In this document: piece after piece, positions 6,093 through 29,636 of the stretch | Layout of the letters: each line of letters begins with the position of its first letter | How positions within the stretch are numbered: the first letter of the stretch is position 1 | Origin: Pseudomonadota bacterium | GTDB taxonomy: Bacteria > Pseudomonadota > Gammaproteobacteria > Burkholderiales > Burkholderiaceae_C | Direction of reading: 5' to 3' | Length of the DNA stretch: 64,000 bases | Assembly (NCBI GenBank): GCA_052034395.1 | Contig: JBPOIP010000030.1 | Span: 25,753-89,752, forward strand | Made by a program: the position numbers and the translations under genes | The notes under the pieces: model-generated | What the model saw: the letters and a program-made list of their open reading frames with translations, nothing else | Told to the model about the DNA's origin: nothing | Database searches by the model: none

Positions 6093-7436
6093 CTACGACA
6101 TTGTCGGTGTACCCAGTGTCTTCCTGACCCTATGCACGGGAAAGCCAACAGAAAATGTCGACCCCTGCCCAGGTGTACTTTCAATCGTCAACTCAGCCCC
6201 ATGGCGTTGTGCGACATGCTTGACAATGGCGAGACCCAAGCCCGTCCCGCCGGTGTCACGGGACCGACTACGATCGACCCGGTAAAAGCGCTCCGTCAAT
6301 CGCGGAATATGCTCCTGCGCAATTCCTGGTCCCTGATCCCGTACCTGAAACAGTGCATTGCCATCGGGCAACAACCTGAAACTCACCTCGATTCGCCCTC
6401 CACTCGGCGTGTACCGAATCGCGTTACTGATCAGATTCGAAATTGCGCTATGCAGTTCCACCGAAGAACCCGCAATTTCGTAGCCGTTTTCGCGATTGAA
6501 CGCCAGTTCATGCGGCTGAACAGACAATATCCGTGAAAGGTCCAGTGCGTCCTGTTCACACTGCCGCATCAGTAGATCCACCGAAACCCAGTCATGTACC
6601 GAAGGCAATGGACTGCCCTCCAGACGAGAAAGCGTCAACAAATCACTGACCAGCGTTTGCATGCGCTGGGCCTGCTGTGACATCAAACCCAGATAACGCT
6701 GACGCTCCTTTTCATCCAGTGACAGCGTCTGCAAAGTCTCAACAAAGCCCGCCAGAACGGTCAAAGGCGTGCGTATTTCATGCGACACGTTGGCAACGAA
6801 ATCCCTGCGCATGGCTTCGGCCTGTTCCACAGCCGTGATATCACGCGACAGCAAAAGGACACGCCCTTCGCCGTAGGGATGGAGATGCACTGACAGCTTC
6901 ACCGGCTTGAATGCATTGCTTGAGCGACCTGGCATCGTGATGTCGCTGTGGAAATTGCGCGCAGACAGATAAGCCGAAAAACCCGGGTCGCGCACCAGAT
7001 TGCCAATGTGCTGCAACATGTCTCGCCGCGCATCAAATCCGAAATGCTCAGCCGCAGTCTGGTTGAACCATTCAATGCGTGTATCGGAGTCCAGCAGCAC
7101 CACCCCATTGGGCGAAGCCTGCAGCGCTGCCAGAAAGTCTTCCAGACGGCTATCGCTTTCCTTGGCCAGGCGACTGCCAGCACGCAAAATGCGTCGCACA
7201 CGATCGTGTGCCTCACCCCAGAGTCCACTTCCGAGATTCAGTTCATTGGACGCACCGTCACGCAACCATCGCAGCAAGCGCAATCCACGCACGGAGTCCA
7301 TCACAAACCAAAGAAAACTCCCAGCCATCGCCAACGATAGCGCGGTGACCCATTGGTGCCCATCCAAGGCCAACACCCACCCCAAACCTGCGCCAAAGGC
7401 CTGACACAAAACCAGGGTGATAAACCGCCAAAACAT
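6093..7436 (-). CDS. phoR: Phosphate regulon sensor histidine kinase PhoR
   Basis: FVANVSHEIRTPLT H-box, NLISNAIRY, GTGLGLAIVKH, PAS region; downstream of phoB. Confidence 0.96.
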   Translation of the reverse strand: MFWRFITLVLCQAFGAGLGWVLALDGHQWVTALSLAMAGSFLWFVMDSVRGLRLLRWLRDGASNELNLGSGLWGEAHDRVRRILRAGSRLAKESDSRLEDFLAALQASPNGVVLLDSDTRIEWFNQTAAEHFGFDARRDMLQHIGNLVRDPGFSAYLSARNFHSDITMPGRSSNAFKPVKLSVHLHPYGEGRVLLLSRDITAVEQAEAMRRDFVANVSHEIRTPLTVLAGFVETLQTLSLDEKERQRYLGLMSQQAQRMQTLVSDLLTLSRLEGSPLPSVHDWVSVDLLMRQCEQDALDLSRILSVQPHELAFNRENGYEIAGSSVELHSAISNLISNAIRYTPSGGRIEVSFRLLPDGNALFQVRDQGPGIAQEHIPRLTERFYRVDRSRSRDTGGTGLGLAIVKHVAQRHGAELTIESTPGQGSTFSVGFPVHRVRKTLGTPTMS

Positions 7437-7454
7437 CAGATCGGCCCGCAGCAG

Positions 7455-8183
7455 CTACAGGCTCGCTTTTTCTGTTGAACTTGAAACAACCGAAGCAGGT
7501 GTGGCAGTCAGGCGATAGCCCGCGCCCCGCACGGTCTCCACCATGGCACCTGCCTGCGCAAGGGATTCGCGAAGCCGCTTGACGTGGACATCCACCGTAC
7601 GCTCTTCAATGTACACATGGTCACCCCACACGTTGTCCAGCAACTGCGCACGGCTGTGAACCCGCTCCCGATGTCCCATGAAGTAGTGCAGCAGCTTGAA
7701 CTCGGTTGGACCGAGTTTCAACGGCTGATTCTCAAATGAAACCCGGTGGGTCGCGGGATCCAGCACCAAACCACCCATGGTCATTACTTCACCTGCCTGC
7801 TCCGGTGTGCGCCGACGCAGCACAGCCCGTATGCGCGCCAGCAATTCCTTGGTCGAAAAAGGCTTGGCGATGTAGTCGTCTGCACCGGCATCCAGACCGG
7901 CAACGCGGTCTGCTTCGTCACCGCGGGCCGTCAACATGATCAACGGTACCGACTGTGTTTTGGGATCCGCGCGCCAGCGCTTGGCCAGCGTCAACCCACT
8001 CTCGCCGGGCAGCATCCAGTCCAGAAGGATCAAGTCCGGCAAACCTGCATCCAGATCACGCTGGGCCGTCACGCTGTCCATGGCCCAAATTGGCCGGAAA
8101 CCGTTATGTCGCAGGTTGACCGCGATAAGTTCCGCAATGGCAGCTTCATCTTCCACCACCAGAACAGACGGCATATTTCTCAT
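7455..8183 (-). CDS. phoB: Phosphate regulon response regulator PhoB
   Basis: Receiver domain (LLDWMLPG) plus OmpR-type wHTH (RTVDVHVKRLR); ATGA overlap with the phoU stop. Confidence 0.96.
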   Translation of the reverse strand: MRNMPSVLVVEDEAAIAELIAVNLRHNGFRPIWAMDSVTAQRDLDAGLPDLILLDWMLPGESGLTLAKRWRADPKTQSVPLIMLTARGDEADRVAGLDAGADDYIAKPFSTKELLARIRAVLRRRTPEQAGEVMTMGGLVLDPATHRVSFENQPLKLGPTEFKLLHYFMGHRERVHSRAQLLDNVWGDHVYIEERTVDVHVKRLRESLAQAGAMVETVRGAGYRLTATPASVVSSSTEKASL

Positions 8184-8881
8184 TTGATGACCAACTCGAT
8201 GTTTTCCATGGATGTGTGACGCACATCCTCACCTTTGACCACATAAATGATGAACTCGGCAATATTCTTGGAATGGTCACCAATCCGCTCAATCGCTTTG
8301 GCCAGAAACAACAGATCCAGACTGGGCGAAATCATGCGGGGATCCTCCATCATGTAGGTGATCAGTTTGCGCACAAAGCCGTCAAACTCCACATCGATCA
8401 AGTCGTCCTCTTTCAAGATGGAAACTGCTGCAGAAACATCCAGTCTCGCAAACGCATCCAGCGCCTTTCTGAGCAGTCCGGAGGCCAGATCGGCGGCAAC
8501 GCGCAGTTCCAGTGAAGGAAGCGACCGCGGGGATCCACTTTGTATGATGGAGCGAACCATACGGGCAATCTTTTCCGCCTCATCGCCCACTCGCTCGAGA
8601 TTCGCTGTCGTCTTGGAGATTGCAATCAAGAGGCGAAGGTCTCGCGCAGTCGGTTGGCGTCGTGCAATGATGGATGACAGTTCGCGATCAATTTCGACCT
8701 CCATCGCATTCACGCGTGCTTCATTCGCCGTCACCTCGTCAGAGACTTCAACGCTGAACTGTGACAACGCAAAAATGGCCCGGCGAATCTGTGACTCGAC
8801 CAAACCACCGAGCTCCATGACCTGTGAGGAGACCGAAGTCAGTTCACTGTCGAATTGTGTTGATAGGTGTTTATCAGGCAT
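8180..8881 (-). CDS. phoU: Phosphate signalling protein PhoU
   Basis: RRQPTARDLR, LERVGDEA, IERIGDHSKNIAE. Confidence 0.96.
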   Translation of the reverse strand: MPDKHLSTQFDSELTSVSSQVMELGGLVESQIRRAIFALSQFSVEVSDEVTANEARVNAMEVEIDRELSSIIARRQPTARDLRLLIAISKTTANLERVGDEAEKIARMVRSIIQSGSPRSLPSLELRVAADLASGLLRKALDAFARLDVSAAVSILKEDDLIDVEFDGFVRKLITYMMEDPRMISPSLDLLFLAKAIERIGDHSKNIAEFIIYVVKGEDVRHTSMENIELVIK

Positions 8882-8943
8882 GGGGGTCTCTCAATCTGTC
8901 TGCCGCAAAGCCCATTGCTCAGCATGCAGTGTGTAACACAACA

Positions 8944-9723
8944 TCATCCAAATCTTCCGGTAATGTAGTCTTCGGTTTCCTTGCGGTTGGGCTTGAAGAA
9001 CATTTGCTCCGTAGCGCCAAACTCCACCAGATCACCCAGATACATGTACGCCGTGTAATCGCTGCAACGTGCTGCCTGCTGCATGTTGTGCGTGACAATA
9101 ACCACGGTGTAATCGCTCTTGAGCTCCACGATCAACTCCTCGACCTTGGCGGTGGATATGGGGTCAAGCGCTGAACAGGGTTCATCGAGCAACAATACTT
9201 CGGGCTTGATCGCGATACCGCGCGCAATGCAAAGGCGTTGCTGCTGTCCACCCGACAGGCTCGAACCGCTCTGGTGCAATTTATCCTTTACCTCAGTCCA
9301 CAACGCAGACTTGCGCAGTGCCCACTCCACACGCTCTTCCATATCGGTGGCGCTAAGCGACTCAAACAATTTCACACCAAACGCGATGTTGTCAAAAATG
9401 GACATCGGAAACGGCGTGGGCTTCTGAAAAACCATGCCAACCTTGGCGCGCAACAGTGCGACATCTTCCTTGCTCTTCAGCAAGTTCTCACCGTCGAGCA
9501 TGATCTCGCCCTCCGCCCGCTGTTCCGGGTACAGCTCAAACATGCGGTTGAAAACGCGCAACAGCGTCGACTTGCCACAACCGGATGGACCGATGAAGGC
9601 CGTCACCTTGTTCTCGGGAATCTGCAGGTTGATGCTTTTGAGCGCGTGGAACTTGCCGTAGTAAAAATTCAGGTCCTTGACCGAAATCTTTGTCTTTTCG
9701 GTTGCCATAGTGGTGTTCAGCAT
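8944..9723 (-). CDS. pstB: Phosphate ABC transporter ATPase PstB
   Basis: [39 protein letters not shown]. Confidence 0.97.
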
Positions 9724-9756
9724 GGAGTTTTTCAGGTTGTTAGCTGCGAAGAAGAA

Positions 9757-10620
9757 TCAGATCCTGGAGCGGGTCAGTACCCGGGCAAGAATGTTCAGAC
9801 CCAAAACCGCTGCGGTGATGATAAAAACGCCAGCCCACGCCAGCTTTTGCCAGTTCTCATAGGGACTCATGGCAAACTTGAAAATGGTCACTGGCAGGCT
9901 TGCCATCGGCTCACTGAGACTGCTGGTCCAGAACTGGTTGCTCAATGCCGTGAATAGCAAAGGCGCCGTCTCACCGGCAATACGCGCTACCGCCAGGAGG
10001 ACACCCGTGATCACGCCGGCTCGCGCCGCCTTGAGCGTGATGCTCAAAATGACCTTCCACTTGGGCGCACCCAACGCATAAGCTGCTTCGCGCAAACCGG
10101 GTGGAACCAGCTGAAGCATGTTCTCTGTGGTGCGGATAACCACCGGAATCACCAGCAGTGATAAAGCCAGGATCCCCGCATAGCCCGAAAAGGACTTGAA
10201 TCGGGACACCACAACGGCATACACAAATAGTCCGATCACAATGGATGGCGCAGACAGCAAAATATCATTCACAAAACGCGTCAAAGACGCCAGCCAACCC
10301 TTGGTATTGAACTCTGCCAGATAGATCCCCGCCATCACCCCGATGGGCGTGCCCAACCCGGTTGCCAGAACCACCATCAACAATGAACCGAAGATGGCGT
10401 TTGCCAATCCGCCCTCATCATTGGGAGGAGGCGTCATTTGCGTGAAGGTGGCGACCGACAATCCACCAATACCCAACAGCAATGTTTCCCACAAAATCCA
10501 GAACAACCAGAAGAGCCCGAAGGACATAGCCGCCAACGCCAAGGTCGTAGCCACGTTGTTCACAACTTTGCGGCGCGCAAATTTGGCTGCGCGTGACTGT
10601 TTTTCTGCGAGCGTGCTCAT
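9757..10620 (-). CDS. pstA: Phosphate ABC transporter permease PstA
   Basis: [13 protein letters not shown] motif, [11 protein letters not shown]. Confidence 0.95.
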
Positions 10621-11648
10621 GTTTTTGTACCTTCGCCTTTGCGCAGCTGGGACAGCAATAACTTGGACAGCGAGAGGATCACAAATGTAATAAAGAACAG
10701 CACCAATCCAAGGTACATCAACGATGCCTGGTGCAAGCCCTCACCCGCTTCGGCGAACTCATTGGCCAGCGCCGAGGTAATGCTGTTTGCCGCCTGAAAC
10801 AAGCTGAGCGAGTCCAACTGGTTGAAGTTTCCGATAACAAAAGTCACCGCCATGGTCTCGCCAATGGCACGGCCCAGGCCCAGCATGATTCCGCCAATGA
10901 CTCCCGCTTTTGTGTAGGGCAGGACAACCTTGGTGACAACCTCCCACGTCGTCGCGCCCAGCCCATAGGCGGACTCTTTCAGCAACGGAGGCGTGACTTC
11001 AAACACATCGCGCATCACTGCTGCGATAAATGGGATGATCATGATGGCCAGAATCACCCCGGCCGACAGGATACCGATACCAACCGGCGGTCCGGACACG
11101 AAAGCGCCAAGGTATGGAACCCCGGCAAATGCGGCCTGGAGTGGCTGTTGCACATACGTTGCCAGCACAGGCCCGAACACCAGCAAACCCCACATGCCAT
11201 ACACAATGGACGGCACGGCCGCCAGCAACTCGATAGCGGTACCCAATGGCCGCTTGAGCCACGCTGGCGACAACTCGGTCAAAAACAACGCAATACCAAA
11301 GCTCACGGGAACGGCGATCAACAAAGCGATGAAAGACGTTGCCAGCGTTCCATAAATCATCACCAGACCGCCAAATTCCTCCTTGACCGGATCCCATGTC
11401 GTGTTGGTCAAGAAACCAAGCCCGTACTTTTCAATGGCGGGCCATGCACTGATGGTCAGTGAAACCAGAATGGCAACCAGCATTCCCAAAGTTATGAGCG
11501 CAGCACCCTGGGCCATCCAGCCAAAGATACGGTCGGCCATGGGGCCGGAACGGGCCCTTTTGATAGGTGGAGGGTGGATCATTGCGCGAACTGACGGTGT
11601 TGCAGATTGGTGGGACGAAAAGTCGCCACTGGCCAGTGTAGATGACAT
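10617..11648 (-). CDS. pstC: Phosphate ABC transporter permease PstC
   Basis: [31 protein letters not shown]. Confidence 0.95.
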
Positions 11649-11689
11649 ATTCAGCTTTCGGTATCAACCCGAATGGCTTTTACCGCGCC

Positions 11690-12733
11690 TTACTTGAAGG
11701 CTATGGGCTTGCCAGAACCGTCCTTGATCTCGCCCCAGGCCTTTTCGATGGCGGCGATCACGGGCTTTGGCATGGGCACATAGTCCAGGTCTGCAGCGGT
11801 CTTTTCGCCGTTGGCATATGCCCAGCTAAAGAACTTCAACACTTCGGTCGCATTGGCAGGCTTGTCCTGCTTCGTATGCATCAACACAAAGGTGGCTCCA
11901 GAAATTGGCCAGGCGTCCTTGCCGGGCTGGTTTGTCAGAATCTGATAAAAAGACTTGGCCCAATCCGCACCAGCGGCCGCGGCTTTGAACGAGTCATCTT
12001 CCGGCTTGACGAAATTGCCGGCAGAGTTCTGCACGGTGGCATAGGTCATTTTGTTTTGCTTGACATAGGAATACTCTACGTATCCCATGGAATTTGGCAG
12101 GCGACCCACAAACGCTGCAACGCCCTCATTGCCTTTGCCACCAGCACCAACCGGCCAGTTGACGGCAGTACCCTCGCCTACCTTGGACTTCCACTCCGGG
12201 CTAATCTTGCTCAGGTAGTTGGTAAAGATAAAGGTCGTACCGGAACCATCAGCGCGGCGAACCTGCGCAATGGCGGCGTCTGGCAAAGCCAAAGTCGGGT
12301 TCAGGGCCTTCAGGGCCGGGTCATTCCAGCGCGAAATCTTGCCCAAGTAGATGTCAGCCAAAAGGGTGCCTGTCAACTTCAGTTGTCCAGGCTCAATACC
12401 CTTGACATTGATCACCGGAACAACGCCACCCATCACCGTTGGAAACTGCATTTGCCCTTTGGTCTTCAGCACTTCATCTGTTTGCGGCATGTCCGAAGCG
12501 CCAAAGTCCACTGTATTGGAGTCGATCTGCTTGATACCGCCACCTGAGCCGATGGACTGGTAATTGACCTTGACCTTGGTCGCCTTGTTGTAATCAGCTG
12601 CCCATTTGGAATAGATCGGCGCCGGGAAAGTCGCACCGGCACCGGTGATTTCCTGGGCGCCAGCGGCACCCGCAAAACCCAATGTTGATACGACCGCCAG
12701 GGACAGGAGTGGGAGTTTGAAAGTGATTCGCAT
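11690..12733 (-). CDS. pstS: Phosphate-binding protein PstS
   Basis: Signal peptide, GAGATFPAP, YQSIGSGGG, RADGSGTT. Confidence 0.97.
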   Translation of the reverse strand: MRITFKLPLLSLAVVSTLGFAGAAGAQEITGAGATFPAPIYSKWAADYNKATKVKVNYQSIGSGGGIKQIDSNTVDFGASDMPQTDEVLKTKGQMQFPTVMGGVVPVINVKGIEPGQLKLTGTLLADIYLGKISRWNDPALKALNPTLALPDAAIAQVRRADGSGTTFIFTNYLSKISPEWKSKVGEGTAVNWPVGAGGKGNEGVAAFVGRLPNSMGYVEYSYVKQNKMTYATVQNSAGNFVKPEDDSFKAAAAGADWAKSFYQILTNQPGKDAWPISGATFVLMHTKQDKPANATEVLKFFSWAYANGEKTAADLDYVPMPKPVIAAIEKAWGEIKDGSGKPIAFK

Positions 12734-12786
12734 GGATAACCTTTAGTTCGGTTGATTGAGGAATGAAAGGACTTTAAGAAAGTAAT

Positions 12787-12804
12787 GTGACAGCTATGTG
12801 ACAA
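12787..12804 (-). promoter_or_regulatory. Pho box of the pstS promoter
   Basis: Minus strand TTGTCAC-ATAG-CTGTCAC, then 10 nt, then TAAAGT (12771-12776). Confidence 0.85.
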
Positions 12805-12887: not shown

Positions 12888-12905
12888 CTGTCACACGCCT
12901 GTCAC
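12888..12905 (+). promoter_or_regulatory. Pho box upstream of the fasciclin gene
   Basis: CTGTCAC-ACGC-CTGTCAC, then 10 nt, then TACGCT (12916-12921). Confidence 0.8.
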
Positions 12906-12954
12906 AAGAGGCTCTTACGCTTTGATGCTTTCAACCCCAACGATGGAACGCACC

Positions 12955-13455
12955 ATGTCACTGTTCAATGTTTCTACACCTTCCCGCCGTGCCGCTCTGG
13001 TCGCAGGTCTTGTCCTTTCATTGGCCGGCTGCGCAACGCCTTCCGGCCCGGTCAGCCTGGCAGACACCATCGCCGCCAACCCGTCCCTCAGCACCCTGAA
13101 CGAATTGGTTATCAAAGCCGGGCTCACCGACACACTGAAGACCGGTGGCCCGTTCACCGTGTTTGCACCTACCAACGACGCCTTCAAGGCCGTACCCGCT
13201 GCCGCCATGGCTGACCTGGCACAGCATCCCGACAAGCTCAAAGCGGTGCTGACCTACCACGTCATTCCCGGAAAGACCATGGCAGCCGACGTCAAGAACA
13301 GCAACGTCAAGACGGTCAATGGCGCCAATCTGGCTTTGGCGAAGGCAGGTGATTTTGTAACGGTCGAAAGCGGTGCGGTCGTGGCTTCCAACCTGGTCGC
13401 AACAAACGGCGTCATCCACACGGTGGACACGGTGCTGATGCCTCCCAAGAAGTAA
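12955..13455 (+). CDS. Fasciclin (FAS1) domain lipoprotein
   Basis: Lipobox LAGC; GPFTVFAPTNDAF and ATNGVIHTVDTVL FAS1 motifs. Confidence 0.9.
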   Translation: MSLFNVSTPSRRAALVAGLVLSLAGCATPSGPVSLADTIAANPSLSTLNELVIKAGLTDTLKTGGPFTVFAPTNDAFKAVPAAAMADLAQHPDKLKAVLTYHVIPGKTMAADVKNSNVKTVNGANLALAKAGDFVTVESGAVVASNLVATNGVIHTVDTVLMPPKK

Positions 13456-13467
13456 GACATCCAATGC

Positions 13468-13498
13468 ATTCCTTACCCCCTTTGCGGGGGCAAGGAAT
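13468..13498. terminator. Hairpin after the fasciclin gene
   Basis: ATTCCTT-A-CCCCC...GGGGG-C-AAGGAAT; no clear U tract. Confidence 0.45.
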
Positions 13499-13617: not shown

Positions 13618-14763
13618 ATGACCCACCCACACCATCCCAACCGGCGGCAGTCGCTGCATGCTTTGCTCGGGCTCGGCGTGGCAGTTGCCACGCCCGGGTG
13701 GGCACAGTCGCCCAGGGCTTCTGCAAGCGCCCGGACTTTGACCGTGGCACAAGTGGTGGACATGTCAACAGCCCAGGTTGATGTTTCCAAGGACTTTGTG
13801 GTTGGATCGCGCACAGCCTGGCAAGAGATCAACGCAAAAGGTGGCGTTCAGGGATCACCTGTGAAACACCTTGTGATCGAAGTGGATGGCAGTGTGGCGG
13901 GTTTGCGCGTGGCACTGGAGAGCTTGAAGTCCGAGCCGCACGTTGTTGCGGTGTTTGGCACCGCTGGCGATCGAACTGCAACCCAGTTCGCGACCGCCCT
14001 GCGCCGTGAATTGCCGGACATGCCCCATGTTGCACCATGGCTGCATAACGTCGACGCCATTACATCAACGAACACTTTTCCGATTTTCGCGTCCCGACAG
14101 GAACAGATCGCGCACGCGATCAAGTCACTGTCGGTCATGGGGATTACGCAGGTAGGTACCGTATACGGATCTGCCGCAGAGTTTGCCGTCTACCGGCGAG
14201 ACCTGGAACAGATTGCGCGATCCTTGAAACTTGCTGTCACACCGTACTACACCGAAGGGGATTTGCGGGACCTCGCACAAACCCTCACGCCAGAGAGCCC
14301 CAGGGTGCTCCTGTTTGTGGGTGGCACACCCGAACTGGTTCGCTTTGCGCAGGGCGTGGAAAAGCAGGCCGCCCAGCGCTACCTGATTGCCATGTCCGAC
14401 GTCAACCTGCAAAGCATTCAGCAGCTGGGCGCTTCCCGGTTTACCCCGATGATTGCAACCCAGGTCGTGCCCATGGTCAATTCCAGCCTGCCACTCGTCA
14501 AGGGGTACCGCGTCGCGCTCGGACGGCTGTTTGACGAGCCCCCAACCCCCTTGAGCCTGGCAGGCTACGTGTCCGCACGCTACACCTTTGAAGTCATGCA
14601 GGGCATTGACGGCCCGGTGACGCGTCAGACTGCTTTGCAAGCCTTTGGCCGACGCAGCACGATAGACCTTGGCGGCTTTCGCATTGCTCCGGACGCCAGG
14701 TACCAGGGAACAGCCTTCGTAACCCAAAGCATGGTGGCGGCCGATGGCCGTCTGGTCGGTTGA
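13618..14763 (+). CDS. Orphan periplasmic binding protein (type 1, Leu/Ile/Val-binding-like), probable Tat substrate
   Basis: NRRQSLHALLGLG twin-arginine signal; AWQEINAKGGVQG motif typical of PBP1 proteins. Confidence 0.75.
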   Translation: MTHPHHPNRRQSLHALLGLGVAVATPGWAQSPRASASARTLTVAQVVDMSTAQVDVSKDFVVGSRTAWQEINAKGGVQGSPVKHLVIEVDGSVAGLRVALESLKSEPHVVAVFGTAGDRTATQFATALRRELPDMPHVAPWLHNVDAITSTNTFPIFASRQEQIAHAIKSLSVMGITQVGTVYGSAAEFAVYRRDLEQIARSLKLAVTPYYTEGDLRDLAQTLTPESPRVLLFVGGTPELVRFAQGVEKQAAQRYLIAMSDVNLQSIQQLGASRFTPMIATQVVPMVNSSLPLVKGYRVALGRLFDEPPTPLSLAGYVSARYTFEVMQGIDGPVTRQTALQAFGRRSTIDLGGFRIAPDARYQGTAFVTQSMVAADGRLVG

Positions 14764-22034: not shown

Positions 22035-24128
22035 TCAGGCCTTCTCAACGTCTGCGTAACGCGCCATCAGTGCAACCTGGGCACCATGCAATGGGGTCTT
22101 TCCATCTCCCTGGAAGCGCCGGTATTTGCCGTCTGCACCCAGATCCCATGCGTCAACGCCATCGTGCAGGTAGGCCACCAGACACTCGTCAACCAGTCGC
22201 TGGCGTTGGACCGGGTCGGTCACGGGCCACGCCAGTTCCACGCGACGCACCATGTTGCGGTTCATCCAGTCGGCACTGGAGAGGTAAAGGTCTTCGTTAT
22301 CGCCTTCACGGAAATAGAAAACCCGCGAGTGCTCCAGAAACCGGCCAATCACCGAACGCACCCGAATGTTGTCAGTGTGCCCTGGCACCTGTGCGGGCAG
22401 CATGCAGGCGCCGCGCACAATCAGGTCGATCCGCACACCCTGGCGACCAGCCCGCATCAAACTGTGAATCAGCGCTTCGTCGGTCAGCGAGTTCATTTTG
22501 GCAACGATACGGGTAGCTTTGCCCCGGCTTGCTGCAGCGCCCAGTGCATCAATCCTTGCAATCATGTTGCGGTGCAGGTTGAAGGGTGCAAACCACAACT
22601 TGCGCAACCGCGGCAAACGACTTTGGCTTGCCAGATGCACAAACACATGCTCCATATCGGTTGTGAGCGCCGTGTCAGCTGTGATATGGCTTACATCGGT
22701 GTAAAGGCGTGCCGTGCGCGGGTTGTAATTGCCCGTCGACAGATGACCATAGCGTTTGAGGTTCTTGCCCTCGCGCCGCGTGATCAGCATCATCTTGGCG
22801 TGGGTTTTGAGGCCCACCACGCCATACAGCACCTGCGCTCCAATGGATTCGAGCATTTCGGCCCAGTTGATATTGGCTTCTTCGTCAAAGCGGGCCTTTA
22901 GCTCCACCACCACGGTAACTTCTTTGCCCAGACGCACGGCTTCGCGCAGCAGATCCATCAATTCGGAGTCGGGGCCAGTGCGGTAAATGGTTTGCTTGAT
23001 GGCCAATACATTCGGATCATTCACCGCTTCACGCAAAAGCCCCAGCACCCCATCAAAGCTCTCAAAGGGCTGGTGAATCAGAATGTCGCCCTGCTTCAAT
23101 TGCTCAAAAATGCTTTGTCCATTTGCCATTTGAGCAGGGTAGGACGCACGGTACGGTGTAAAACACAGGTCCGGGCGGTCAACCAGGTCAATAAGCTGGG
23201 TCAATCGCACCAGGTTCACCGGACCTGCCACGCGGTACAGGGCTTTGGCAGGCAAATCAAACTGTTTGAGCAAGAAATCAGACAGGTACTCGGAACAACC
23301 CGCCGACACCTCCAAGCGGACCGCCTGCCCGTAATGGCGGTGAACCAGCCCCTGACGCAGGGCCATGCGCAGGTTTTTGACATCGTCTTCGTCCACGGCC
23401 AGATCAGAATGCCGCGTCACACGGAACTGCGAGAACTGCCCCACCGAGCGCCCCGCAAACAGCTCAGCCAGGTGCGCGCGGATGATGCTCGACAGTGACA
23501 CGAACAGCAGGCGGTCACCCGAAACCTTGGCAGGCATGCGGATCAGGCGCGGCAGCACGCGCGGCACCTTGACGATGGCAATTTCATTCTCGCGACCAAA
23601 CGCATCCCGCCCGCCCAGACGCACGATAAAGTTCAGCGACTTGTTGGCGACTTGCGGAAACGGGTGGGATGGGTCCAGACCCACCGGAATCAGCAACGGG
23701 CGTACTTCCCGCTCGAAATACTGCTTGACCCAGTGGCGTTGCGCCGCATTGCGTTCGCCGTGGGAAATGATCTTGATGCCAAGTTTCTCAAACGCCGGCA
23801 TCAGTTTCTCGTTGTAAAGCGTGTATTGCCGCTCAACGATAGCGTGCACCGTTGCCGACAATCGCTCGAACGAGCCTACCGAAAACAGGCCCTTTCGTTC
23901 TTTGGCCTGATTGGCGGTCAGGTGCGGCTCGGCACGCACTTCAAAAAACTCGTCAAGATTGGATGAAACGATGCACAGATAGCGCAAACGCTCCAGCAGC
24001 GGAACATCATCGCGAACAGCCCAGTCCAGCACACGCTCATTGAAGGCAAGAATGCTGTGGTCGCGGTCCAGCAGATCGGGCGCCTCCAGGGGAGCCTGCA
24101 ATTTGGGGTTGCGAAGAAATGACAACAT
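22035..24128 (-). CDS. ppk1: Polyphosphate kinase 1
   Basis: SSNLDEFFEVR, SHPFPQV, IKQTIYRT, ELKARFDEEANI, KTHAK, GRFLEHSR, SSADWMNRN. Confidence 0.97.
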   Translation of the reverse strand: MLSFLRNPKLQAPLEAPDLLDRDHSILAFNERVLDWAVRDDVPLLERLRYLCIVSSNLDEFFEVRAEPHLTANQAKERKGLFSVGSFERLSATVHAIVERQYTLYNEKLMPAFEKLGIKIISHGERNAAQRHWVKQYFEREVRPLLIPVGLDPSHPFPQVANKSLNFIVRLGGRDAFGRENEIAIVKVPRVLPRLIRMPAKVSGDRLLFVSLSSIIRAHLAELFAGRSVGQFSQFRVTRHSDLAVDEDDVKNLRMALRQGLVHRHYGQAVRLEVSAGCSEYLSDFLLKQFDLPAKALYRVAGPVNLVRLTQLIDLVDRPDLCFTPYRASYPAQMANGQSIFEQLKQGDILIHQPFESFDGVLGLLREAVNDPNVLAIKQTIYRTGPDSELMDLLREAVRLGKEVTVVVELKARFDEEANINWAEMLESIGAQVLYGVVGLKTHAKMMLITRREGKNLKRYGHLSTGNYNPRTARLYTDVSHITADTALTTDMEHVFVHLASQSRLPRLRKLWFAPFNLHRNMIARIDALGAAASRGKATRIVAKMNSLTDEALIHSLMRAGRQGVRIDLIVRGACMLPAQVPGHTDNIRVRSVIGRFLEHSRVFYFREGDNEDLYLSSADWMNRNMVRRVELAWPVTDPVQRQRLVDECLVAYLHDGVDAWDLGADGKYRRFQGDGKTPLHGAQVALMARYADVEKA

Positions 24129-24166
24129 ATGCACGCCTTGACTATGACACAGGAGTGAAGAATTGT

Positions 24167-25249
24167 TTACGAAATTGATGACAGTGGTGTGACGTTTCCA
24201 TGAAGCAAGGGGCGCACATCCAGCAAGTTGCCCTTGCGCGCAGGAACCAGCTGATTTAGAAACAGTTGGGCGGCGGGACCCCAACCGAACGCCAACGCGC
24301 GCTCGCGGGCCAGGTGGCGTGGCACCGCAAGCGCCCCATACCAGGCGCGGGCCAGATCATCGTCCAGCACACCACCGGCTGGTGGTGACCCTACTACTTC
24401 CAGTGGTCCATCCACCGGGTAGGCCGCCACCGGTGTGCCGGTGGCCATTGCTTCTAGCATCACCAGACCAAAGGTTTCCGAGCGACTGGGCATGACAAAT
24501 ACATCAGCGGATGCATACACCTGGGCCAACACATCCCGCGGAAGTACGCCAAGCCAGTGCGCCTTGGGAAACCGCTGGCGCAATCCTTCCTCCAGAGGCC
24601 CGACACCACAAACAATTTTGGTCCCTGGGATGTCGAGCGTCAGAAAAGCCTCAATGTTCTTCTCGTAGGAAACGCGACCGACAAAGAGGGATATGGGACG
24701 GGCCAGCTGTCCCAGCGGTGCATAGGGCTGGGGTACCTCGCAATACGTGAACAGTTGCATGTCGACGCCATGCGTCCAGTTGCGCAGGTTGGGAAATCCT
24801 TTGGCCTGCAATATCTTCAGTACGTTGTGCGTAGGCACCAAGACGCCCGAGGAGTGCTTGTGAAAGTGCCGGAACAGCGCGTAGCCCATCCACAATGGAA
24901 CTTTCAACGCAGCTTTCAGTATTTCGGGAAACCGCGTGTGGTACGCCGTGGTGAACGCCAGAGCGCGCTTTATGCAATAGGCGCGTGCGGCCCAGCCCAG
25001 CGGACCTTCGGTGGCCAGATGAATGGCATCCGGCGCAATGGCATCGAGCCGGCGTGCCAGAGTCTTCGCAGGACGCACTGCAAGATCAATTCCGGCATAG
25101 CCCGGGCAAGGCCGGGTATCAAAAAATCCAGGATGTATGACTTCGACCTGGTGCCCCAGGGCTTGCATCTCGCGCACCAGCTCCACCAGGGTCGTGACAA
25201 CGCCATTGACCTGTGGCTGCCATGCATCGGTCACCAGGACCAGCTTCAT
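24167..25249 (-). CDS. GT4 glycosyltransferase, Agt-like (predicted glyco/glucuronosyl-DAG synthase)
   Basis: VTDAWQPQVNGVVTTL, IHLATEGPLG, FVGRVSYEKNIEAFL, SRSETFGLVMLEAMATG; 4-nt overlap with the plcP-like gene. Confidence 0.85.
   Translation of the reverse strand: MKLVLVTDAWQPQVNGVVTTLVELVREMQALGHQVEVIHPGFFDTRPCPGYAGIDLAVRPAKTLARRLDAIAPDAIHLATEGPLGWAARAYCIKRALAFTTAYHTRFPEILKAALKVPLWMGYALFRHFHKHSSGVLVPTHNVLKILQAKGFPNLRNWTHGVDMQLFTYCEVPQPYAPLGQLARPISLFVGRVSYEKNIEAFLTLDIPGTKIVCGVGPLEEGLRQRFPKAHWLGVLPRDVLAQVYASADVFVMPSRSETFGLVMLEAMATGTPVAAYPVDGPLEVVGSPPAGGVLDDDLARAWYGALAVPRHLARERALAFGWGPAAQLFLNQLVPARKGNLLDVRPLLHGNVTPLSSIS
24178..24195 (-). promoter_or_regulatory. Pho box upstream of ppk1, inside the 3' end of the glycosyltransferase gene
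   Basis: Minus strand ACGTCAC-ACCA-CTGTCAT, then 10 nt, then AACAAT. Confidence 0.6.
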
Positions 25250-26127
25250 GCCAGTGCCGCTTGAGGAGTCGGCACGGGTATCACGGCGGCCTCTGCATCG
25301 TTCCAGTAAACCAGTTCCAGCCGCCCATCGTGGTGCTCAACCAGTGCGCTGCGGCTTTCCACCCAGTCGCCATCATTGCAGTACAGGGTGCCGTGAATGT
25401 CACGCATCTCTGCGCGGTGGATATGCCCGCACACCACACCATCGTGTCCATGGGCACGCGCAGCTTGCGCCACCGCCACCTCGAAGTCGGTCACGTAATT
25501 GAGCGCTGATTTGACTTTTTGCTTCAGGTAAGCCGACAGCGACCAGTAGGGCAGCCCCATGCGCGCCCTGAGCGTATTGAGGTAACGATTGAGCTTGAGC
25601 GTGAATTCATACAGGTTGTCGCCCAAGAAGGCCAGCCACTTGGCGCATTGAATGACACCATCGAAATAGTCGCCATGCGTGACCCACAGGCGTCGCCCGT
25701 CGGCTGTGGTGTGCACGGCATCGTCACGAACCTCAATGCCGCCGAACTCATGACCCAAAAAGCCCCGGGCAAACTCGTCATGGTTGCCAGGAATGAACAC
25801 CACTTTGCAGCCTTTACGCGCGCGGCGCAGCAGTTTTTGGACCACATCGTTATGCGACTGGGGCCAGTACCAGCGCCGGCGCAACTGCCAGCCGTCCACA
25901 ATGTCGCCCACGAGGTAGAGGTGATCGCTGGAGTGAACCTTGAGAAAATCCAGCAATGCATTGGCCTGACAGCCCGCCGTGCCCAGATGAATGTCCGAAA
26001 TGAAAATGGCCCGGTAGCGCCTCGCACGCTGATCGTCATCTTCATCATGGGAGTCAACGCTGTTTGGCTGGGGCACACCCAGCATGCCTTGCATCAGGGG
26101 CGAGAAGGCATCAGGCCCGGCACGCAT
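25246..26127 (-). CDS. Metallophosphoesterase, PlcP/LpxH2-like (predicted phospholipase C)
   Basis: FISDIHLG, LVGDIVDGW, PGNHD, THGD, CGHIH, NDGDWVES; ATG overlaps the upstream TGA. Confidence 0.85.
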   Translation of the reverse strand: MRAGPDAFSPLMQGMLGVPQPNSVDSHDEDDDQRARRYRAIFISDIHLGTAGCQANALLDFLKVHSSDHLYLVGDIVDGWQLRRRWYWPQSHNDVVQKLLRRARKGCKVVFIPGNHDEFARGFLGHEFGGIEVRDDAVHTTADGRRLWVTHGDYFDGVIQCAKWLAFLGDNLYEFTLKLNRYLNTLRARMGLPYWSLSAYLKQKVKSALNYVTDFEVAVAQAARAHGHDGVVCGHIHRAEMRDIHGTLYCNDGDWVESRSALVEHHDGRLELVYWNDAEAAVIPVPTPQAALA

Positions 26128-26972
26128 CAGGCGCCCAGAAAGTGTTTGCGATAACGTGATGGCAAATCGGCAATGCGCATCATCATCGGAAGGTCCGCCG
26201 AGTTGAAGTCGGGGTCCCACGCCGGCGGGCCAAGAACCTTGGCGCCCAGGCGCAAATAGCCCTTTATCAGTGCGGGCGGCTCCACCTCCAGCGAAGCATC
26301 CAGCCGTTCAACCGGCAGGGGCAGGCGGGGGCGAACATGGTATTCAATCGGTGCCAGATGGGTGGCCTGAACCTGGCGCCAGATGCTGGCCGCCATGTCG
26401 CCACTGGCAACACCGTTGTGCAACATGGGTATGCTGGCGCACCCAATCATCGTGTCGAGCTGGTTGCGCACCATGAATGCGCCCAATGCACCCCACAACG
26501 CCATGATCACTCCGCCATGGCGGTGGTCCTTGTGCACGCAGCTGCGCCCCAGTTCCACCATGCGGTCCCGCAGGCTGCGCAGCCGGGTCAGGTCAAACTC
26601 CGTGTCGCTGTAGGTGCTGCCCACGCGCTGTGCCTGCACCGGTGTGAGCACGCGGTAGGTTCCGATAACCTGCTCGCTTGCCGCATCAATCACCAGCAGA
26701 TGTTCGCAGAAGTTGTCAAAGAGGTCGATGTCGTGCCCCGGAATGGGCGTGTTCAGCCGCGCGCCCATTTCGCCAGCGAACACATCGTGGCGCAGCCGCT
26801 GAGCGGCGCGTACTTCATCCTGGTGCCTGGCCCAGGTCACCCGAATCGCGGCGCGCTCCTGTGCGGCAGTGTGTGCGCCAGCGGCTTGTGCGGTGCAAAG
26901 GGCATCGGCCGTGCCAAAAGTCTGCGTTGTTTGCAGGGAAGATGCGCTTCCCGATGCGGTGGAACCCGTCAT
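26127..26972 (-). CDS. GNAT-fold N-acyltransferase, OlsB-like (ornithine lipid synthesis)
   Basis: AQRLRHDVFAGEMGA, DIDLFDNFCEHLLV, VIGTYRVL, VELGRSCVH, PALIKGYLRLGAKV, DPDFNSAD. Confidence 0.8.
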   Translation of the reverse strand: MTGSTASGSASSLQTTQTFGTADALCTAQAAGAHTAAQERAAIRVTWARHQDEVRAAQRLRHDVFAGEMGARLNTPIPGHDIDLFDNFCEHLLVIDAASEQVIGTYRVLTPVQAQRVGSTYSDTEFDLTRLRSLRDRMVELGRSCVHKDHRHGGVIMALWGALGAFMVRNQLDTMIGCASIPMLHNGVASGDMAASIWRQVQATHLAPIEYHVRPRLPLPVERLDASLEVEPPALIKGYLRLGAKVLGPPAWDPDFNSADLPMMMRIADLPSRYRKHFLGA

Positions 26973-26974
26973 GC

Positions 26975-27205
26975 TCAACCTCCGTGTTGCACAGTGAGGC
27001 TCAAATCGCCACCACCCTGATGGAGCGCATCAAGCCAGGGTCGCGTGCCTGCCCGAAACCGCAGGCCTCCAGGTCTATTGGCCAGTGCACGCGCCGTGCA
27101 TCGCAAAATGCGCAGGCACTGGTGTTCCAGATCGTGGGTAAATCGCTGGTGCGTAGCCGCATGGGCCTGACCGGACTGTTTTGGGTGGTGCAATTGCGCT
27201 TCCAT
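26975..27205 (-). CDS. Putative 76-aa His-rich small protein, first ORF of the olsB-like operon
   Basis: GGAG RBS before ATG; stop 2 nt before the olsB-like start; no recognisable domain. Confidence 0.35.
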   Translation of the reverse strand: MEAQLHHPKQSGQAHAATHQRFTHDLEHQCLRILRCTARALANRPGGLRFRAGTRPWLDALHQGGGDLSLTVQHGG

Positions 27206-27252
27206 CTTTTTTCTCCGTCGTGCGTGTTATGGCGCAATTCTGGGAGGCCAAG

Positions 27253-27292
27253 ATGACGCCTGCACGTCAGTTCGATGGCAGTTTCATGACAG
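27253..27292 (-). promoter_or_regulatory. Quadruple Pho box upstream of the lipid-remodelling/ppk1 operon
   Basis: Minus strand CTGTCAT-GAAA-CTGCCAT-CGAA-CTGACGT-GCAG-GCGTCAT, then 10 nt, then CAGAAT. Confidence 0.75.
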
Positions 27293-27343: not shown

Positions 27344-27357
27344 TAGGGTTAACCCTA
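27344..27357. promoter_or_regulatory. Perfect 14-bp palindrome, candidate TF site
   Basis: TAGGGTTAACCCTA, 37 nt upstream of the ORF at 27395. Confidence 0.45.
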
Positions 27358-27394: not shown

Positions 27395-27670
27395 ATGCAA
27401 ACTGTATTGACACCTGTCACACGGATACCCACTTCAGGGCGCTCCGCATTCACTGCCGGTCCTGCGATCAATGTGTCCAAACACGTAGACGAGGCAGCAC
27501 GCCTGACCATGGATATTCTGGGGCTGCCGTTTGACGTCGCCCGCGCCCAATATGCCCGGGCAGTGCAGGTCGGGCTGATCCAGCGATCCATGCTGGCATC
27601 GCGTGACTTTTCGCGCACGGTTGGCGCACTGGAACAAATCACGCTGGGACCTTGGGCGCGCCACGTCTAG
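27395..27670 (+). CDS. Hypothetical protein, 91 aa
   Basis: Strong AAGGAG RBS; ordered-looking C-terminal half (ARAQYARAVQVGLIQRSML). Confidence 0.65.
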   Translation: MQTVLTPVTRIPTSGRSAFTAGPAINVSKHVDEAARLTMDILGLPFDVARAQYARAVQVGLIQRSMLASRDFSRTVGALEQITLGPWARHV

Positions 27671-27774
27671 TGCACGCCTGCCCAATGTCGGCAGCAAGCG
27701 GTTGCCATGGAAGGCTTACCCTGGAACATTTGCAACAAAATTGGCAATTAGCCCACGTAGAATATAAGTTGTTA

Positions 27775-27791
27775 GCTATTATTTTTATAGC
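27775..27791. repeat. GCTAT-N7-ATAGC intergenic palindrome, copy 3
   Basis: GCTAT TATTTTT ATAGC. Confidence 0.6.
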
Positions 27792-27815
27792 ATCTTCTAG
27801 TGGGAAAATGTACGC

Positions 27816-29327
27816 ATGGCCAGCGAAAAGATAACTGCGGTTCCCTTTGAGGAAATTGAACTCAAGCTTTGCCTCCCCTGTGCAGACCCTTCCATTCTGG
27901 AACCACTGCTGGTGGGGCTGCCCCTGCTAGCGCACTGCAAGGCCAGACGCGAACACCTGCACAACATCTATTTCGACACCCCGGACGATCTGCTGAACCG
28001 CCAGCGCACTGCCTTGCGCCTTCGCCGAATAGGCAGTGCGAAACAGCCGGTGTGGTTGCAAACGCTGAAGATGGGCGGCAACGGAGACTCGGCGCTGAGC
28101 CAGCGTGGCGAATGGGAGACACGGGTTTCCAAAGCCACACTGGAGTTTGGCATGCTGGAGGCGACCCCTTGGGCCCAAATGGATCCCGACGGCAGCCTGA
28201 TGCGCGCTCTGACGCCGCGATTTACCACTGACTTCACCCGAACCCTCTGGACCATTCGCAACCGCGATGACGCAAGCGTGGTTGAAATCGCCCTCGATCG
28301 GGGACACATTGATGTAAACGGCCAGAACACGCCGATTTGTGAGCTGGAGCTTGAACTCAAGGCGGGCGAGCCATCCGCCCTGTTTGCCATAGCTCGCCAG
28401 ATCGCCAGCGTGCTTGCCGTCATGCCACTGGCTGCCAGCAAGGCACAGCGCGGTTTTGCATTGGCAAACCACACGCTGGATCAACCGACACGTGCCAGGC
28501 CACCCGATCTGTCAACGGAGATGTCGCAATCCGAGGCGGCTCGTTGCGTGCTGCGTGACGTGCTGCACCATTTCAGCGCCAACCTCCACACTCTGCTCAC
28601 GTCAGACGACCCGGAGGTGGTGCACCAGACCCGTATTGCATGGCGACGCATGAAAGCGGCGCTCAGTGTTTTCAGGAAAACTCCGCTGGTTCAGGATGCA
28701 CCGACCTGGCACGCGTTGAAGCCTTTGCTGGATGGACTGGGGCGCTTGCGCGATCTGGAAGTTGCCAGCCTGCAAACCTTGCCCATGCTCGCCAATGCGT
28801 ATGTTGGCGCAAGTTCCAAACGAAAACAGCATTGGCATGCGCTGCAGGTCACGTTGGCACAGGCTGCAGCCAACCAACTCCAATGGGTGCGCGGTGCACT
28901 CCACAGCCCGGGCGCTGGAGGCACATTGCTGGCACTGACCGAATGGCTGGAAACCAAGCCTGCAGGTGCGCAATCAGGCGGCACGAAACGCAAGAATAAG
29001 GCCGCGTTGAGGCCGTGGGTGCGTCAGCGCATGGAGCGCCTGCGCGACCAAATCAAGCGCACACTGAAAAAAACGCCCAACGCCGCCAACCTGCATCGTG
29101 CCCGTCTATTGGCCAAACGGCTGCGCTACAGCGTTGAAGCATTTCGATCGGTACTGCCCAAACGGCGTGCACAACGGTGGCACCGACAGGCAAACCACCT
29201 GCAAAGCACCATCGGATCCGAGCGCGACCTGCAACAGGCGCTCGCCATTGCCAGGCAGCTCAAGGCACATTCTTCCGTGCTGAAATTCCTGAATGTGGTG
29301 TCGCTCGGGCGGCACCACGCGCGTTGA
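27816..29327 (+). CDS. CYTH + CHAD domain protein (triphosphate tunnel metalloenzyme with polyP-binding domain)
   Basis: EIELKL ExExK motif, YFDTP, ALRLRR, ICELELELK; CHAD motifs VHQTRIAWRR, LGRLRDLEV, LHRARLLAKRLRY. Confidence 0.9.
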   Translation: MASEKITAVPFEEIELKLCLPCADPSILEPLLVGLPLLAHCKARREHLHNIYFDTPDDLLNRQRTALRLRRIGSAKQPVWLQTLKMGGNGDSALSQRGEWETRVSKATLEFGMLEATPWAQMDPDGSLMRALTPRFTTDFTRTLWTIRNRDDASVVEIALDRGHIDVNGQNTPICELELELKAGEPSALFAIARQIASVLAVMPLAASKAQRGFALANHTLDQPTRARPPDLSTEMSQSEAARCVLRDVLHHFSANLHTLLTSDDPEVVHQTRIAWRRMKAALSVFRKTPLVQDAPTWHALKPLLDGLGRLRDLEVASLQTLPMLANAYVGASSKRKQHWHALQVTLAQAAANQLQWVRGALHSPGAGGTLLALTEWLETKPAGAQSGGTKRKNKAALRPWVRQRMERLRDQIKRTLKKTPNAANLHRARLLAKRLRYSVEAFRSVLPKRRAQRWHRQANHLQSTIGSERDLQQALAIARQLKAHSSVLKFLNVVSLGRHHAR

Positions 29328-29333
29328 ACAGCC

Positions 29334-29444
29334 TCACCCGCGCAATCGCCAGGCCTGATAGCGGGAGCGCTGCAGCGCAAACAGTTCCACCAGTCCCCGG
29401 GCGACGCTGCCGAGCAAGGCAAGATGCCGCACCGTCTTATTCAC
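29334..29444 (-). CDS. Putative 36-aa small protein
   Basis: GTG start with GGAG RBS, overlapping the stop of the upstream sORF; MNKTVRHLALLGSVARGLVELFALQRSRYQAWRLRG. Confidence 0.45.
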   Translation of the reverse strand: MNKTVRHLALLGSVARGLVELFALQRSRYQAWRLRG

Positions 29445-29568
29445 CGGGGTACTCCACGACTGGCTGCGGCAATCGGACGGATCGCCCGGACGACAATCCC
29501 AGGGTAACCCAACCGTCATCAAACAGGGCGTCGAGCTTTTTCTGCAATCCAAACAGCTTCCACAGCAT
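29437..29568 (-). CDS. Putative 43-aa small protein (not in the ORF track)
   Basis: GGGAG RBS plus ATG; MLWKLFGLQKKLDALFDDGWVTLGLSSGRSVRLPQPVVEYPGE. Confidence 0.45.
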   Translation of the reverse strand: MLWKLFGLQKKLDALFDDGWVTLGLSSGRSVRLPQPVVEYPGE

Positions 29569-29602
29569 GGCGCACTCCCAATTTCATGGTTAATGAATTG
29601 GT

Positions 29603-29636
29603 AATCTAGCTGTCAACTGTGACAGTTTTGAGTCAA
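29603..29636 (-). promoter_or_regulatory. Pho-type promoter candidate for the two sORFs
   Basis: Minus strand TTGACTC-AAAA-CTGTCAC, then 10 nt, then TAGATT; contains the palindrome CTGTCA-ACTG-TGACAG (29610-29625). Confidence 0.5.

Follow-up and report, generated by a model that had tools for sequence, protein, structure and literature searches.

Do phosphate genes that stand side by side form one system, or are they separate units that respond to the same regulator? The question is raised by a stretch of about 23 kb (positions 6093-29636) within a window of 64,000 nt, i.e., the whole piece of DNA at hand (contig JBPOIP010000030.1), in which genes of phosphate uptake, polyphosphate (polyP) metabolism and phospholipid replacement are interspersed with genes for a fasciclin (FAS1) lipoprotein, a long pyruvate kinase, a CorA-like channel and several very small open reading frames (ORFs). 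We identify this stretch as the main Pho-regulon locus of a bacterium that belongs, as the earlier note had supposed, to the Comamonadaceae and whose nearest named relatives are Rhodoferax, Curvibacter and Ramlibacter metagenome-assembled genomes (MAGs). In the Escherichia coli model, PhoR phosphorylates PhoB, and PhoB binds 11-bp direct repeats in place of the -35 element. We consider it likely that the locus is a Pho-regulon supercluster of separate PhoB-driven units, with at least seven predicted promoters, and not one polyP-granule machine of the kind suggested in an earlier note on this DNA. Viewed across the family, it can be described as a conserved core with a variable slot that takes different Pho-boxed cargo.

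The genes were called by Pfam and NCBIfam profile matches, with equivalog cut-offs applied where NCBIfam has them. The co-location of pstSCAB-phoUBR, ppx, ppk1, sixA, CYTH-CHAD and plcP/agt/olsB-like genes, which the earlier note had read by eye, is confirmed by these matches: PhoR, PhoB, PhoU, PstS, Ppk1 and SixA pass their NCBIfam equivalog cut-offs, and PstCAB, a Ppx/GppA protein, CYTH-CHAD, an agt-like GT4 glycosyltransferase, a plcP-like metallophosphoesterase, an OlsB-like acyltransferase, the fasciclin protein, the long pyruvate kinase and an MgtE_N-CorA protein are found as well. Below, G000 is the genome under study, other G-numbers are relatives' genomes and L-numbers are comparison loci. 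The core, composed of pstSCAB-phoUBR, fasciclin-(PBP)-ppx (PBP, periplasmic binding protein), an H1-like gene and sixA-ppk1-agt-plcP-olsB, is common to many Comamonadaceae genera, and the order 567-aa gene / phoRBU-pstBACS / fasciclin-(PBP)-ppx ... sixA-ppk1-agt-plcP-olsB is retained in 9/9 orthologous named loci.

Seven Pho-type sites are present in the locus, at 12787-12804(-), 12888-12905(+), 20433-20450(-), 20924-20941(-), 24178-24195(-), 27253-27292(-) and 29619-29636(-). Each is composed of two to four 11-bp repeats, has a box score of 11 to 14 of 14, is oriented toward a downstream start codon and is separated from a -10-like hexamer by exactly 10 nt. Six of them, those starting at 12787, 12888, 20924, 24178, 27253 and 29619, had been listed in the earlier note; all are in place, and at all six the 10-nt spacing is true, with the hexamers, in coordinate order, TAAAGT, TACGCT, CTAAAT, AACAAT, CAGAAT and TAGATT. 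The seventh, at 20433-20450(-) immediately upstream of the kinase gene, had been overlooked. The site at 20924 had been called weak, which is correct for its poor -10 (CTAAAT) but not for its box, the second best in the genome by the matrix described below.

The sites were compared with the consensus YTGTCAY-N4-YTGTCAY, with mismatches counted over 14 positions, in the 4.55-Mb genome scanned on both strands (9.09 million positions). The only two perfect matches of the genome both lie in the pstS/fasciclin intergenic region. At no more than one mismatch, four sites are found in the window against 0.26 expected from dinucleotide shuffles, of which 0/100 reach four, and the cluster, about 0.5% of the genome, contains 4 of the 19 one-mismatch sites counted genome-wide (binomial P = 2.6e-6). 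When the same positions were scanned with a position weight matrix (PWM) built from the pstS boxes of 11 relatives, our own genome being left out, the three best positions in the genome were all in the cluster: pstS (rank 1), the 71-aa ORF (rank 2) and fasciclin (rank 3). The remaining high-scoring sites of the genome are mostly intragenic or upstream of unrelated genes. The four weaker sites of the locus, those of ppk1, the olsB operon, the kinase and the 43-aa ORF, have nevertheless retained box, 10-nt spacer and -10 in several genera while the flanks diverged, and stronger versions (13-14 of 14) occupy the equivalent positions in G021, G024, G017 and G127.

By analogy with E. coli, scarce phosphate would lead PhoR to phosphorylate PhoB, and PhoB~P would bind the 11-bp repeats (YTGTCAY + 4 nt), which stand in for the -35 element and are separated from the downstream -10 by exactly 10 nt. 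Seven units would be driven in this way: pstSCAB-phoUBR, including autoregulation of the system; the FAS1 lipoprotein gene, divergent from pstS; the 71-aa protein gene; a leaderless gene for a PRK14725-type pyruvate kinase, perhaps with read-through into the divergent CorA gene; ppk1-sixA; the 76-aa protein gene with the olsB-like, plcP-like and agt-like genes of phospholipid replacement; and a pair of 43-aa and 36-aa microprotein genes. The ppx, H1-like and CYTH-CHAD genes would be polyP-related neighbours that lack Pho boxes; the PWM scan gave no Pho box upstream of phoU, phoB, PBP-ppx, CorA, the H1-like gene, CYTH-CHAD, a 91-aa ORF or the 567-aa gene. The suggestion of the earlier note that the interspersed genes take part in phosphate starvation thus stands in part: the fasciclin gene, the 71-, 76- and 43/36-aa ORFs and the kinase gene are each found behind a conserved Pho-type promoter of their own, but the H1-like gene and the CorA gene have no box of their own. 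The small ORFs behave as real coding genes, with ratios of nonsynonymous to synonymous substitution (dN/dS) of about 0.2, of which only the estimate for the 76-aa ORF (38 pairs) is well supported.

The first unit occupies 6093-12733 on the minus strand, in the order pstS (11690-12733), pstC (10617-11648), pstA (9757-10620), pstB (8944-9723), phoU (8180-8881), phoB (7455-8183) and phoR (6093-7436), and with intergenic gaps of no more than 62 nt it is probably a single operon. Its predicted promoter, at 12771-12804(-), is a perfect 14/14 box, TTGTCACATAG CTGTCAC, followed by 10 nt and TAAAGT, and box and -10 are conserved in 12 relatives. As in E. coli-type Pho promoters, CTGTCAY repeats of 7+4 nt stand in place of the -35 element 10 nt before the -10, the best box is at pstS and the regulators are encoded beside pst; the differences from an E. 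coli-type Pho regulon are that the regulators here are apparently co-transcribed with pstSCAB-phoU, that most of the predicted regulon is contained in one 23-kb locus and that the kinase promoter is leaderless in layout. Next to phoR, at 4380-6083, is the gene for a 567-aa predicted membrane protein, which adjoins phoR in 8/9 orthologous Comamonadaceae loci at 44-72% identity; it has no Pfam or NCBIfam family.

Back to back with pstS, and led by the second perfect match of the genome (CTGTCACACGC CTGTCAC, 10 nt, TACGCT; predicted promoter at 12888-12921(+)), is the gene for a single-FAS1-domain lipoprotein at 12943-13455(+) (PF02469, 121.7 bits against a cut-off of 22; lipobox LAGC). When the pstS/fasciclin intergenic regions of nine genus members are aligned, two conserved islands, each a box with its -10, stand out on either side of a diverged centre. 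The fasciclin box is retained in 8/9 related loci, and it scores at least 12 in 20 of 29 genera, most of them with a cTAnGCT -10; no such box was found at any of 21 distant proteobacterial fasciclin paralogues. Orthologues of the gene were found in 42 of 150 genera in a family-wide sample, and in all 29 loci examined (29 genera) they are divergent from pstS, most of them with GTCAY repeats ahead of the -10. In another phylum, four Chloroflexota loci (L039:9920-11308, L045:1999-3372, L053:9923-11275 and L092:9998-11356) encode proteins of 450-462 aa that consist of a signal peptide, then fasciclin and PstS (PBP_like_2) domains, and whose genes lie directly 5' of pstC-pstA-pstB; both Pfam domains occur in about 85 of the best 120 database clusters. 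Because of this strict divergent pairing and of the FAS1-PstS fusions, we think it most likely that the fasciclin protein works outside the cytoplasm in partnership with PstS, where it may serve in tethering, capture or hand-off.

The relatives of the FAS1 protein in the Protein Data Bank (PDB) include Fdp, CupS and MPT70 (1e-18 to 1e-23). Like other bacterial FAS1 proteins (MPT70/MPB70, Fdp of Rhodobacter, CupS, Nex18) it has a single exported FAS1 domain; unlike them, its orthogroup is a lipoprotein strictly paired with pstS and has its own Pho box. A literature search for bacterial fasciclin together with the Pho regulon, PstS or phosphate starvation gave no link, returning only plant or unrelated papers. 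A cyanobacterial MAG, of Desmonostoc (L066:10001-13000), has a fasciclin gene and, after it, genes with 48% and 33% identity to PhoB and PhoR; this may be a third lineage that ties FAS1 to phosphate sensing. A more far-reaching proposal, which we put forward tentatively and would not yet bet on, is that the bacterial FAS1 domain is a dedicated extracytoplasmic partner of PstS, acting in phosphate capture or in the tethering of PstS, that it would be co-induced with PstS from back-to-back Pho promoters in Comamonadaceae and is joined to it covalently in Chloroflexota, and that the leaderless pyruvate kinase of the K+-independent type and three microprotein families are further new effectors of phosphate starvation.

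The lipid genes form a predicted operon on the minus strand (24167-27205), which opens with the 76-aa ORF (26975-27205) and continues with the olsB-like (26127-26972), plcP-like (25246-26127) and agt-like GT4 (24167-25249) genes; with ppk1 and sixA beyond it, the array of six genes covers 21559-27205. The stop of the 76-aa ORF is 2 nt before the olsB ATG (TGAGCATG), and from the olsB-like to the plcP-like and on to the agt-like gene, each start codon overlaps the stop codon of the gene before (TGATG, ATGA). The predicted promoter of the array, at 27237-27292(-), has four 11-bp repeats, then 10 nt and CAGAAT; G021 and G024 have retained all four repeats together with CAGAAT, the Shine-Dalgarno sequence and the beginning of the 76-aa ORF. 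'OlsB-like' is the proper name for the acyltransferase, since it scores 154 bits against the 350 of the equivalog NF052554, with PF13444 matched at 117.6 bits. In NCBIfam the plcP-like protein matches LpxH-like profiles only weakly (47 bits), and the agt-like protein has generic GT4 hits. The layout is nonetheless that of PlcP-Agt operons: PF00149 is followed by PF13439/PF00534 with a stop/start overlap, and a four-repeat box lies upstream of the operon. In the known PlcP-Agt operons of SAR11, Sinorhizobium and Pseudomonas, and in plcP-agt-dagK of Burkholderia, a metallophosphoesterase gene followed by a GT4 gene likewise stands behind a Pho box (PMC4796936, PMC13691135). The operon described here differs from them in that it opens with the 76-aa protein and an OlsB-like N-acyltransferase, has no dagK and continues straight into ppk1-sixA, where ppk1 has a second, internal Pho promoter.

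That internal promoter is predicted at 24162-24195(-), within the 3' end of agt (ACGTCACACCA CTGTCAT, 10 nt, AACAAT), and its box and -10 (AAYAAT) are conserved in G021, G024, G001, G004 and G010. Downstream of it are ppk1 (22035-24128; TIGR03705, 864 bits) and sixA (21559-22020; TIGR00249), together 21559-24128(-), a pair retained in all relatives examined; the SixA cut-off is passed marginally, at 75.3 against 74.5 bits. The 76-aa protein at the head of the array belongs to a family of at least 149 clusters of unnamed proteins with no Pfam family. It has 18 invariant columns in 44 sequences (42-83% identity), its ORF is open in 11 genus genomes with a dN/dS of 0.24 (38 pairs), and it heads an olsB-plcP-agt-ppk1-sixA array in 2/2 distant MAGs examined. 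An AlphaFold2 model from the 44 sequences is poor (mean pLDDT 60) and has a long helix, a conserved loop and a short helix. Between the Pho promoter of the 76-aa ORF and the 91-aa ORF, a perfect palindrome, TAGGGTTAACCCTA, is present at 27344-27357, the core of which, GGGTTAACCC, is retained in G021; it overlaps a sigma-70-like promoter, TTGAAA-16-TAATAT.

The last unit consists of two overlapping ORFs on the minus strand (29334-29568), of 43 aa (29437-29568) and 36 aa (29334-29444), which are recognized by sequence conservation and have no Pfam family. The 43-aa ORF has a conserved N-terminus, MLWKLxGLQxxLDxLF, a dN/dS of 0.18 from 3 usable pairs and 35 short representative relatives. The 36-aa ORF encodes a hydrophobic helix that carries a basic tail (LQRSRYQAWRLRG) and is conserved 3' of the 43-aa ORF in seven genomes. 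Their predicted promoter, at 29603-29636(-), is TTGACTCAAAA CTGTCAC, then 10 nt and TAGATT. Three other genomes have the pattern TTGACnCnAAACnGTCAC-N10-TAGnnT at a distance of 68-69 nt before the start codon, a fourth has a weaker form of it, and box and spacing are also found in G021, G024 and G019. The box overlaps an imperfect palindrome, CTGTCAACTGTGACAG, at 29610-29625, which faces a divergent M14 carboxypeptidase gene; read on the plus strand, it is a poor Pho box.

The variable slot lies between ppx and the H1-like gene, and in this genome it is filled by the CorA gene, the long kinase gene and the 71-aa ORF, a block that we take to be lineage-specific sporadic cargo. In G001, G010, G021, L032 and L033 the slot holds a gene of roughly 590-630 aa for an EAL-CBS-degenerate-GGDEF protein, with a strong Pho box upstream in G001, G010, G021 and L032; G000 has no orthologue of it, the best match being 33% identical. 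RapA of Pseudomonas fluorescens is reportedly a Pho-regulated phosphodiesterase of cyclic di-GMP, and the Pho-boxed EAL-CBS-GGDEF gene of the relatives can be compared with it; the genome under study shares only the slot and the position of the Pho promoter. The linkage to pst and ppk, which the earlier note proposed to check across Comamonadaceae, holds for the core, the fasciclin gene and the H1-like gene, but not for the long kinase, present in only 6 of 151 family genomes, nor for the 71-aa ORF, for which 4 of 61 genus genomes have a conserved open frame.

The kinase, at 18452-20410(-), is predicted by its profile to be a pyruvate kinase of the PRK14725 type (NF011314, 775.2 bits against 642, residues 24-640). 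Its sequence has an N-terminal extension, an enlarged B region and the motif GPKIRTG and lacks the C-terminal allosteric domain, and its barrel aligns to PKM in the PDB in two pieces. The predicted promoter, at 20417-20450(-), reads TTGTCACAAAT TTGCAGC, 10 nt, CATCAT, 6 nt and ATG; the box written whole is TTGTCACAAATTTGCAGC. Box, 10-nt spacer and -10 are found upstream of 8/8 long-kinase homologues examined (six genera) and also in G017, and in several of the homologues the ATG is 5-8 nt past the -10, a leaderless layout. A literature search pairing pyruvate kinase with the Pho box returned nothing relevant. The adjacent gene, at 16782-18086(-), encodes a divergent CorA-family channel with an MgtE_N-like N-terminus (PF01544, 109.7 bits), for which the match is at the level of the Pfam fold only: it scores 112 bits against the 200.75 of the equivalog TIGR00383 and has the loop GGMSEF instead of GMN. 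The CorA gene adjoins the kinase gene in G000, G013 and G115 and may be co-transcribed with it. In G115 (L229:3376-5228), a Pho box, CTGTCACCGAACCGTCAT, is followed by an 88-aa ORF, the CorA homologue, a second box and the kinase gene, and directly beyond are a 43-aa ORF and an M14 peptidase gene; this arrangement suggests that the CorA-kinase pair is a mobile, Pho-boxed module. The 71-aa ORF (20542-20757(-)) has no Pfam match and a dN/dS of 0.21 from 2 usable pairs only. Its predicted promoter, at 20908-20952(-), has three 11-bp repeats (AGGTCAC, TTTTCAT, CTGTCAC), 10 nt and CTAAAT, and in the G013 and G212 homologues the box is followed by CATACT.

Several genes of the locus lie outside the predicted Pho units. 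An orphan periplasmic binding protein (Peripla_BP_6; 13618-14763(+)) with a Tat-like RRQSL signal has weak PDB relatives among Leu/Ile/Val-binding proteins; in many genera its gene is placed between the Pho-boxed fasciclin gene and ppx, with no ABC transporter genes adjacent. The Ppx/GppA-family exopolyphosphatase (14847-16355(+); Pfam) has NCBIfam scores just under the equivalog cut-offs, and its true start is probably the ATG at 14847, 84 nt past the PBP stop; given this start, the overlap of PBP and ppx in the ORF list is not real. The H1-like protein (21099-21551(+)), rich in K, A and P, was read from the sequence and has neither a Pfam match nor a Pho box; its C-terminal domain, ribbon-helix-helix-like in appearance, occurs in 81 of 150 genera. 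Of 30 loci, 25 have sixA beside the H1-like gene, most of them with ppk1 beyond and ppx on the opposite side, so that by synteny, and not by a Pho box, the gene belongs to the conserved part of the polyP locus. A near-palindrome, AACTGTATATACCGTT (a AACnGTATATACnGTT palindrome), at 21066-21081, precedes the start of the gene by about 20 nt and is shared by G013, G017 and G212; it may act as an operator, perhaps one bound by the C-terminal domain of the H1-like protein itself. On the same strand, at 27395-29327, the 91-aa ORF (27395-27670), retained in G021 at 54% identity, and the CYTH-CHAD gene (27816-29327) follow one another, again without a Pho box in the PWM scan. Both domains of the CYTH-CHAD protein are present (PF05235, 120 bits; PF01928, 77.6 bits), and its binding of polyP is putative.

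A number of results weigh against the division into seven PhoB-driven units and have to be considered together with the other explanations of the locus. At no more than two mismatches, 12 sites are found in the window against 5.2 expected, a count reached in 3/100 shuffles, i.e., a marginal excess. The earlier note had named a PWM scan as a check, and such a scan, which singles out three sites of the cluster, ranks the others only at 104 (ppk1), 378 (kinase), 383 (olsB operon) and 695 (43-aa ORF), and chance alone would give the region about 3.6 hits of rank-695 quality. These four sites therefore rest on conservation and not on score. Since the relatives share ancestry, conservation within one family is a footprint, partly non-independent, rather than independent replication. 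The -10 of the 71-aa ORF promoter is poor, the first repeat of the 43-aa site, TTGACTC, is a poor match, and the extents of the operons from the kinase to CorA, from fasciclin to PBP-ppx and from agt to ppk1 are inferred from spacing only. The low ranks of the four sites, the marginal count at two mismatches and the poor first repeat of the 43-aa site would suit an explanation in which only the pstS, fasciclin and 71-aa sites are PhoB sites and the other four are chance half-sites or targets of another regulator. We think this improbable because all four have kept box, spacer and -10 across genera with diverged flanks, because relatives carry versions of 13-14 of 14, and because PhoB control of pst, ppk1 and plcP/agt is established in other bacteria (PMC13700237, PMC4796936, PMC13691135). 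That a different regulator of the OmpR/PhoB family binds all the repeats in response to a signal other than phosphate is scarcely credible: the genome does encode many OmpR-family regulators with 34-42% identity to PhoB, yet the best sites lie upstream of pstS, the canonical PhoB target, and beside phoB, the motif equals the E. coli Pho box, and the regulator encoded there is above the PhoB equivalog cut-off.

The remaining explanation is that of the earlier note, according to which the locus is one integrated phosphate-starvation/polyP-granule system with the fasciclin protein, the microproteins, the H1-like protein, the kinase and CorA as physical accessory parts of the granule or its metabolism. 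In its favor, ppk1, ppx, CYTH-CHAD and the H1-like gene stand side by side, the last of them in tight synteny with ppx and sixA-ppk1, Mg2+ is a counter-ion of polyP, and a CorA-like channel adjoins the kinase. CHAD domains bind polyP (PMC6537752), and the H1-like protein AlgP is found on polyP granules in P. aeruginosa (PMC9239181); as with these granule proteins, a CYTH-CHAD protein and a K/A/P-rich H1-like protein are encoded here near ppk1 and ppx. However, the likeness to AlgP is one of composition and ppx/ppk1 synteny only, the protein described here has a conserved C-terminal domain, its granule association is putative, and neither its gene nor CYTH-CHAD is Pho-boxed. The fasciclin protein is exported as a lipoprotein and has PstS for a fusion partner, which speaks for uptake rather than for granules; the lipid genes belong to a different response that is already known; the block of kinase, CorA and 71-aa ORF is cargo of sporadic occurrence; and the units, predicted to be transcribed separately, lie on both strands. 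The single granule unit is unsupported for these reasons, and we regard it as an unlikely account of the locus. Against the supercluster of PhoB-driven units itself stands the point that clustering could reflect inheritance and not functional integration.

The Pho regulon is textbook knowledge, and most of the modules of this locus come as no surprise. The novelty is a compact locus, conserved family-wide, whose promoters are legible from sequence and which names candidate members of the regulon: a FAS1 lipoprotein tied to PstS by two independent genomic signals, a specialized pyruvate kinase whose Pho promoter is leaderless in layout, three families of conserved microproteins and an H1-like protein between ppx and ppk1. 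If true, the FAS1-PstS partnership would mean that the bacterial FAS1 proteins, long enigmatic, take part in phosphate capture or in the tethering of PstS. Phosphorus cycling is of importance in fresh water and wastewater, habitats in which Comamonadaceae are abundant.

Several minor observations complete the description of the locus. A 112-aa ORF at 18160-18498, which overlaps the 3' end of the kinase gene, and an antisense 71-aa ORF at 13254-13469 were dismissed as spurious, in both cases by judgement alone. An Rfam scan of positions 4000-32000 gave no credible match, and a generic scan for sigma-70 promoters and terminators had no enrichment and was uninformative on operon ends. Outside the window, the fourth-best PWM site of the genome (G000:C29:22944, TTGGCACATAGTTGCCACCAAA) lies 58 nt upstream of a 454-aa gene, the product of which is, by the look of its sequence, a hydrolase of the metallo-beta-lactamase fold/beta-CASP type; this gene is a possible member of the Pho regulon outside the cluster.

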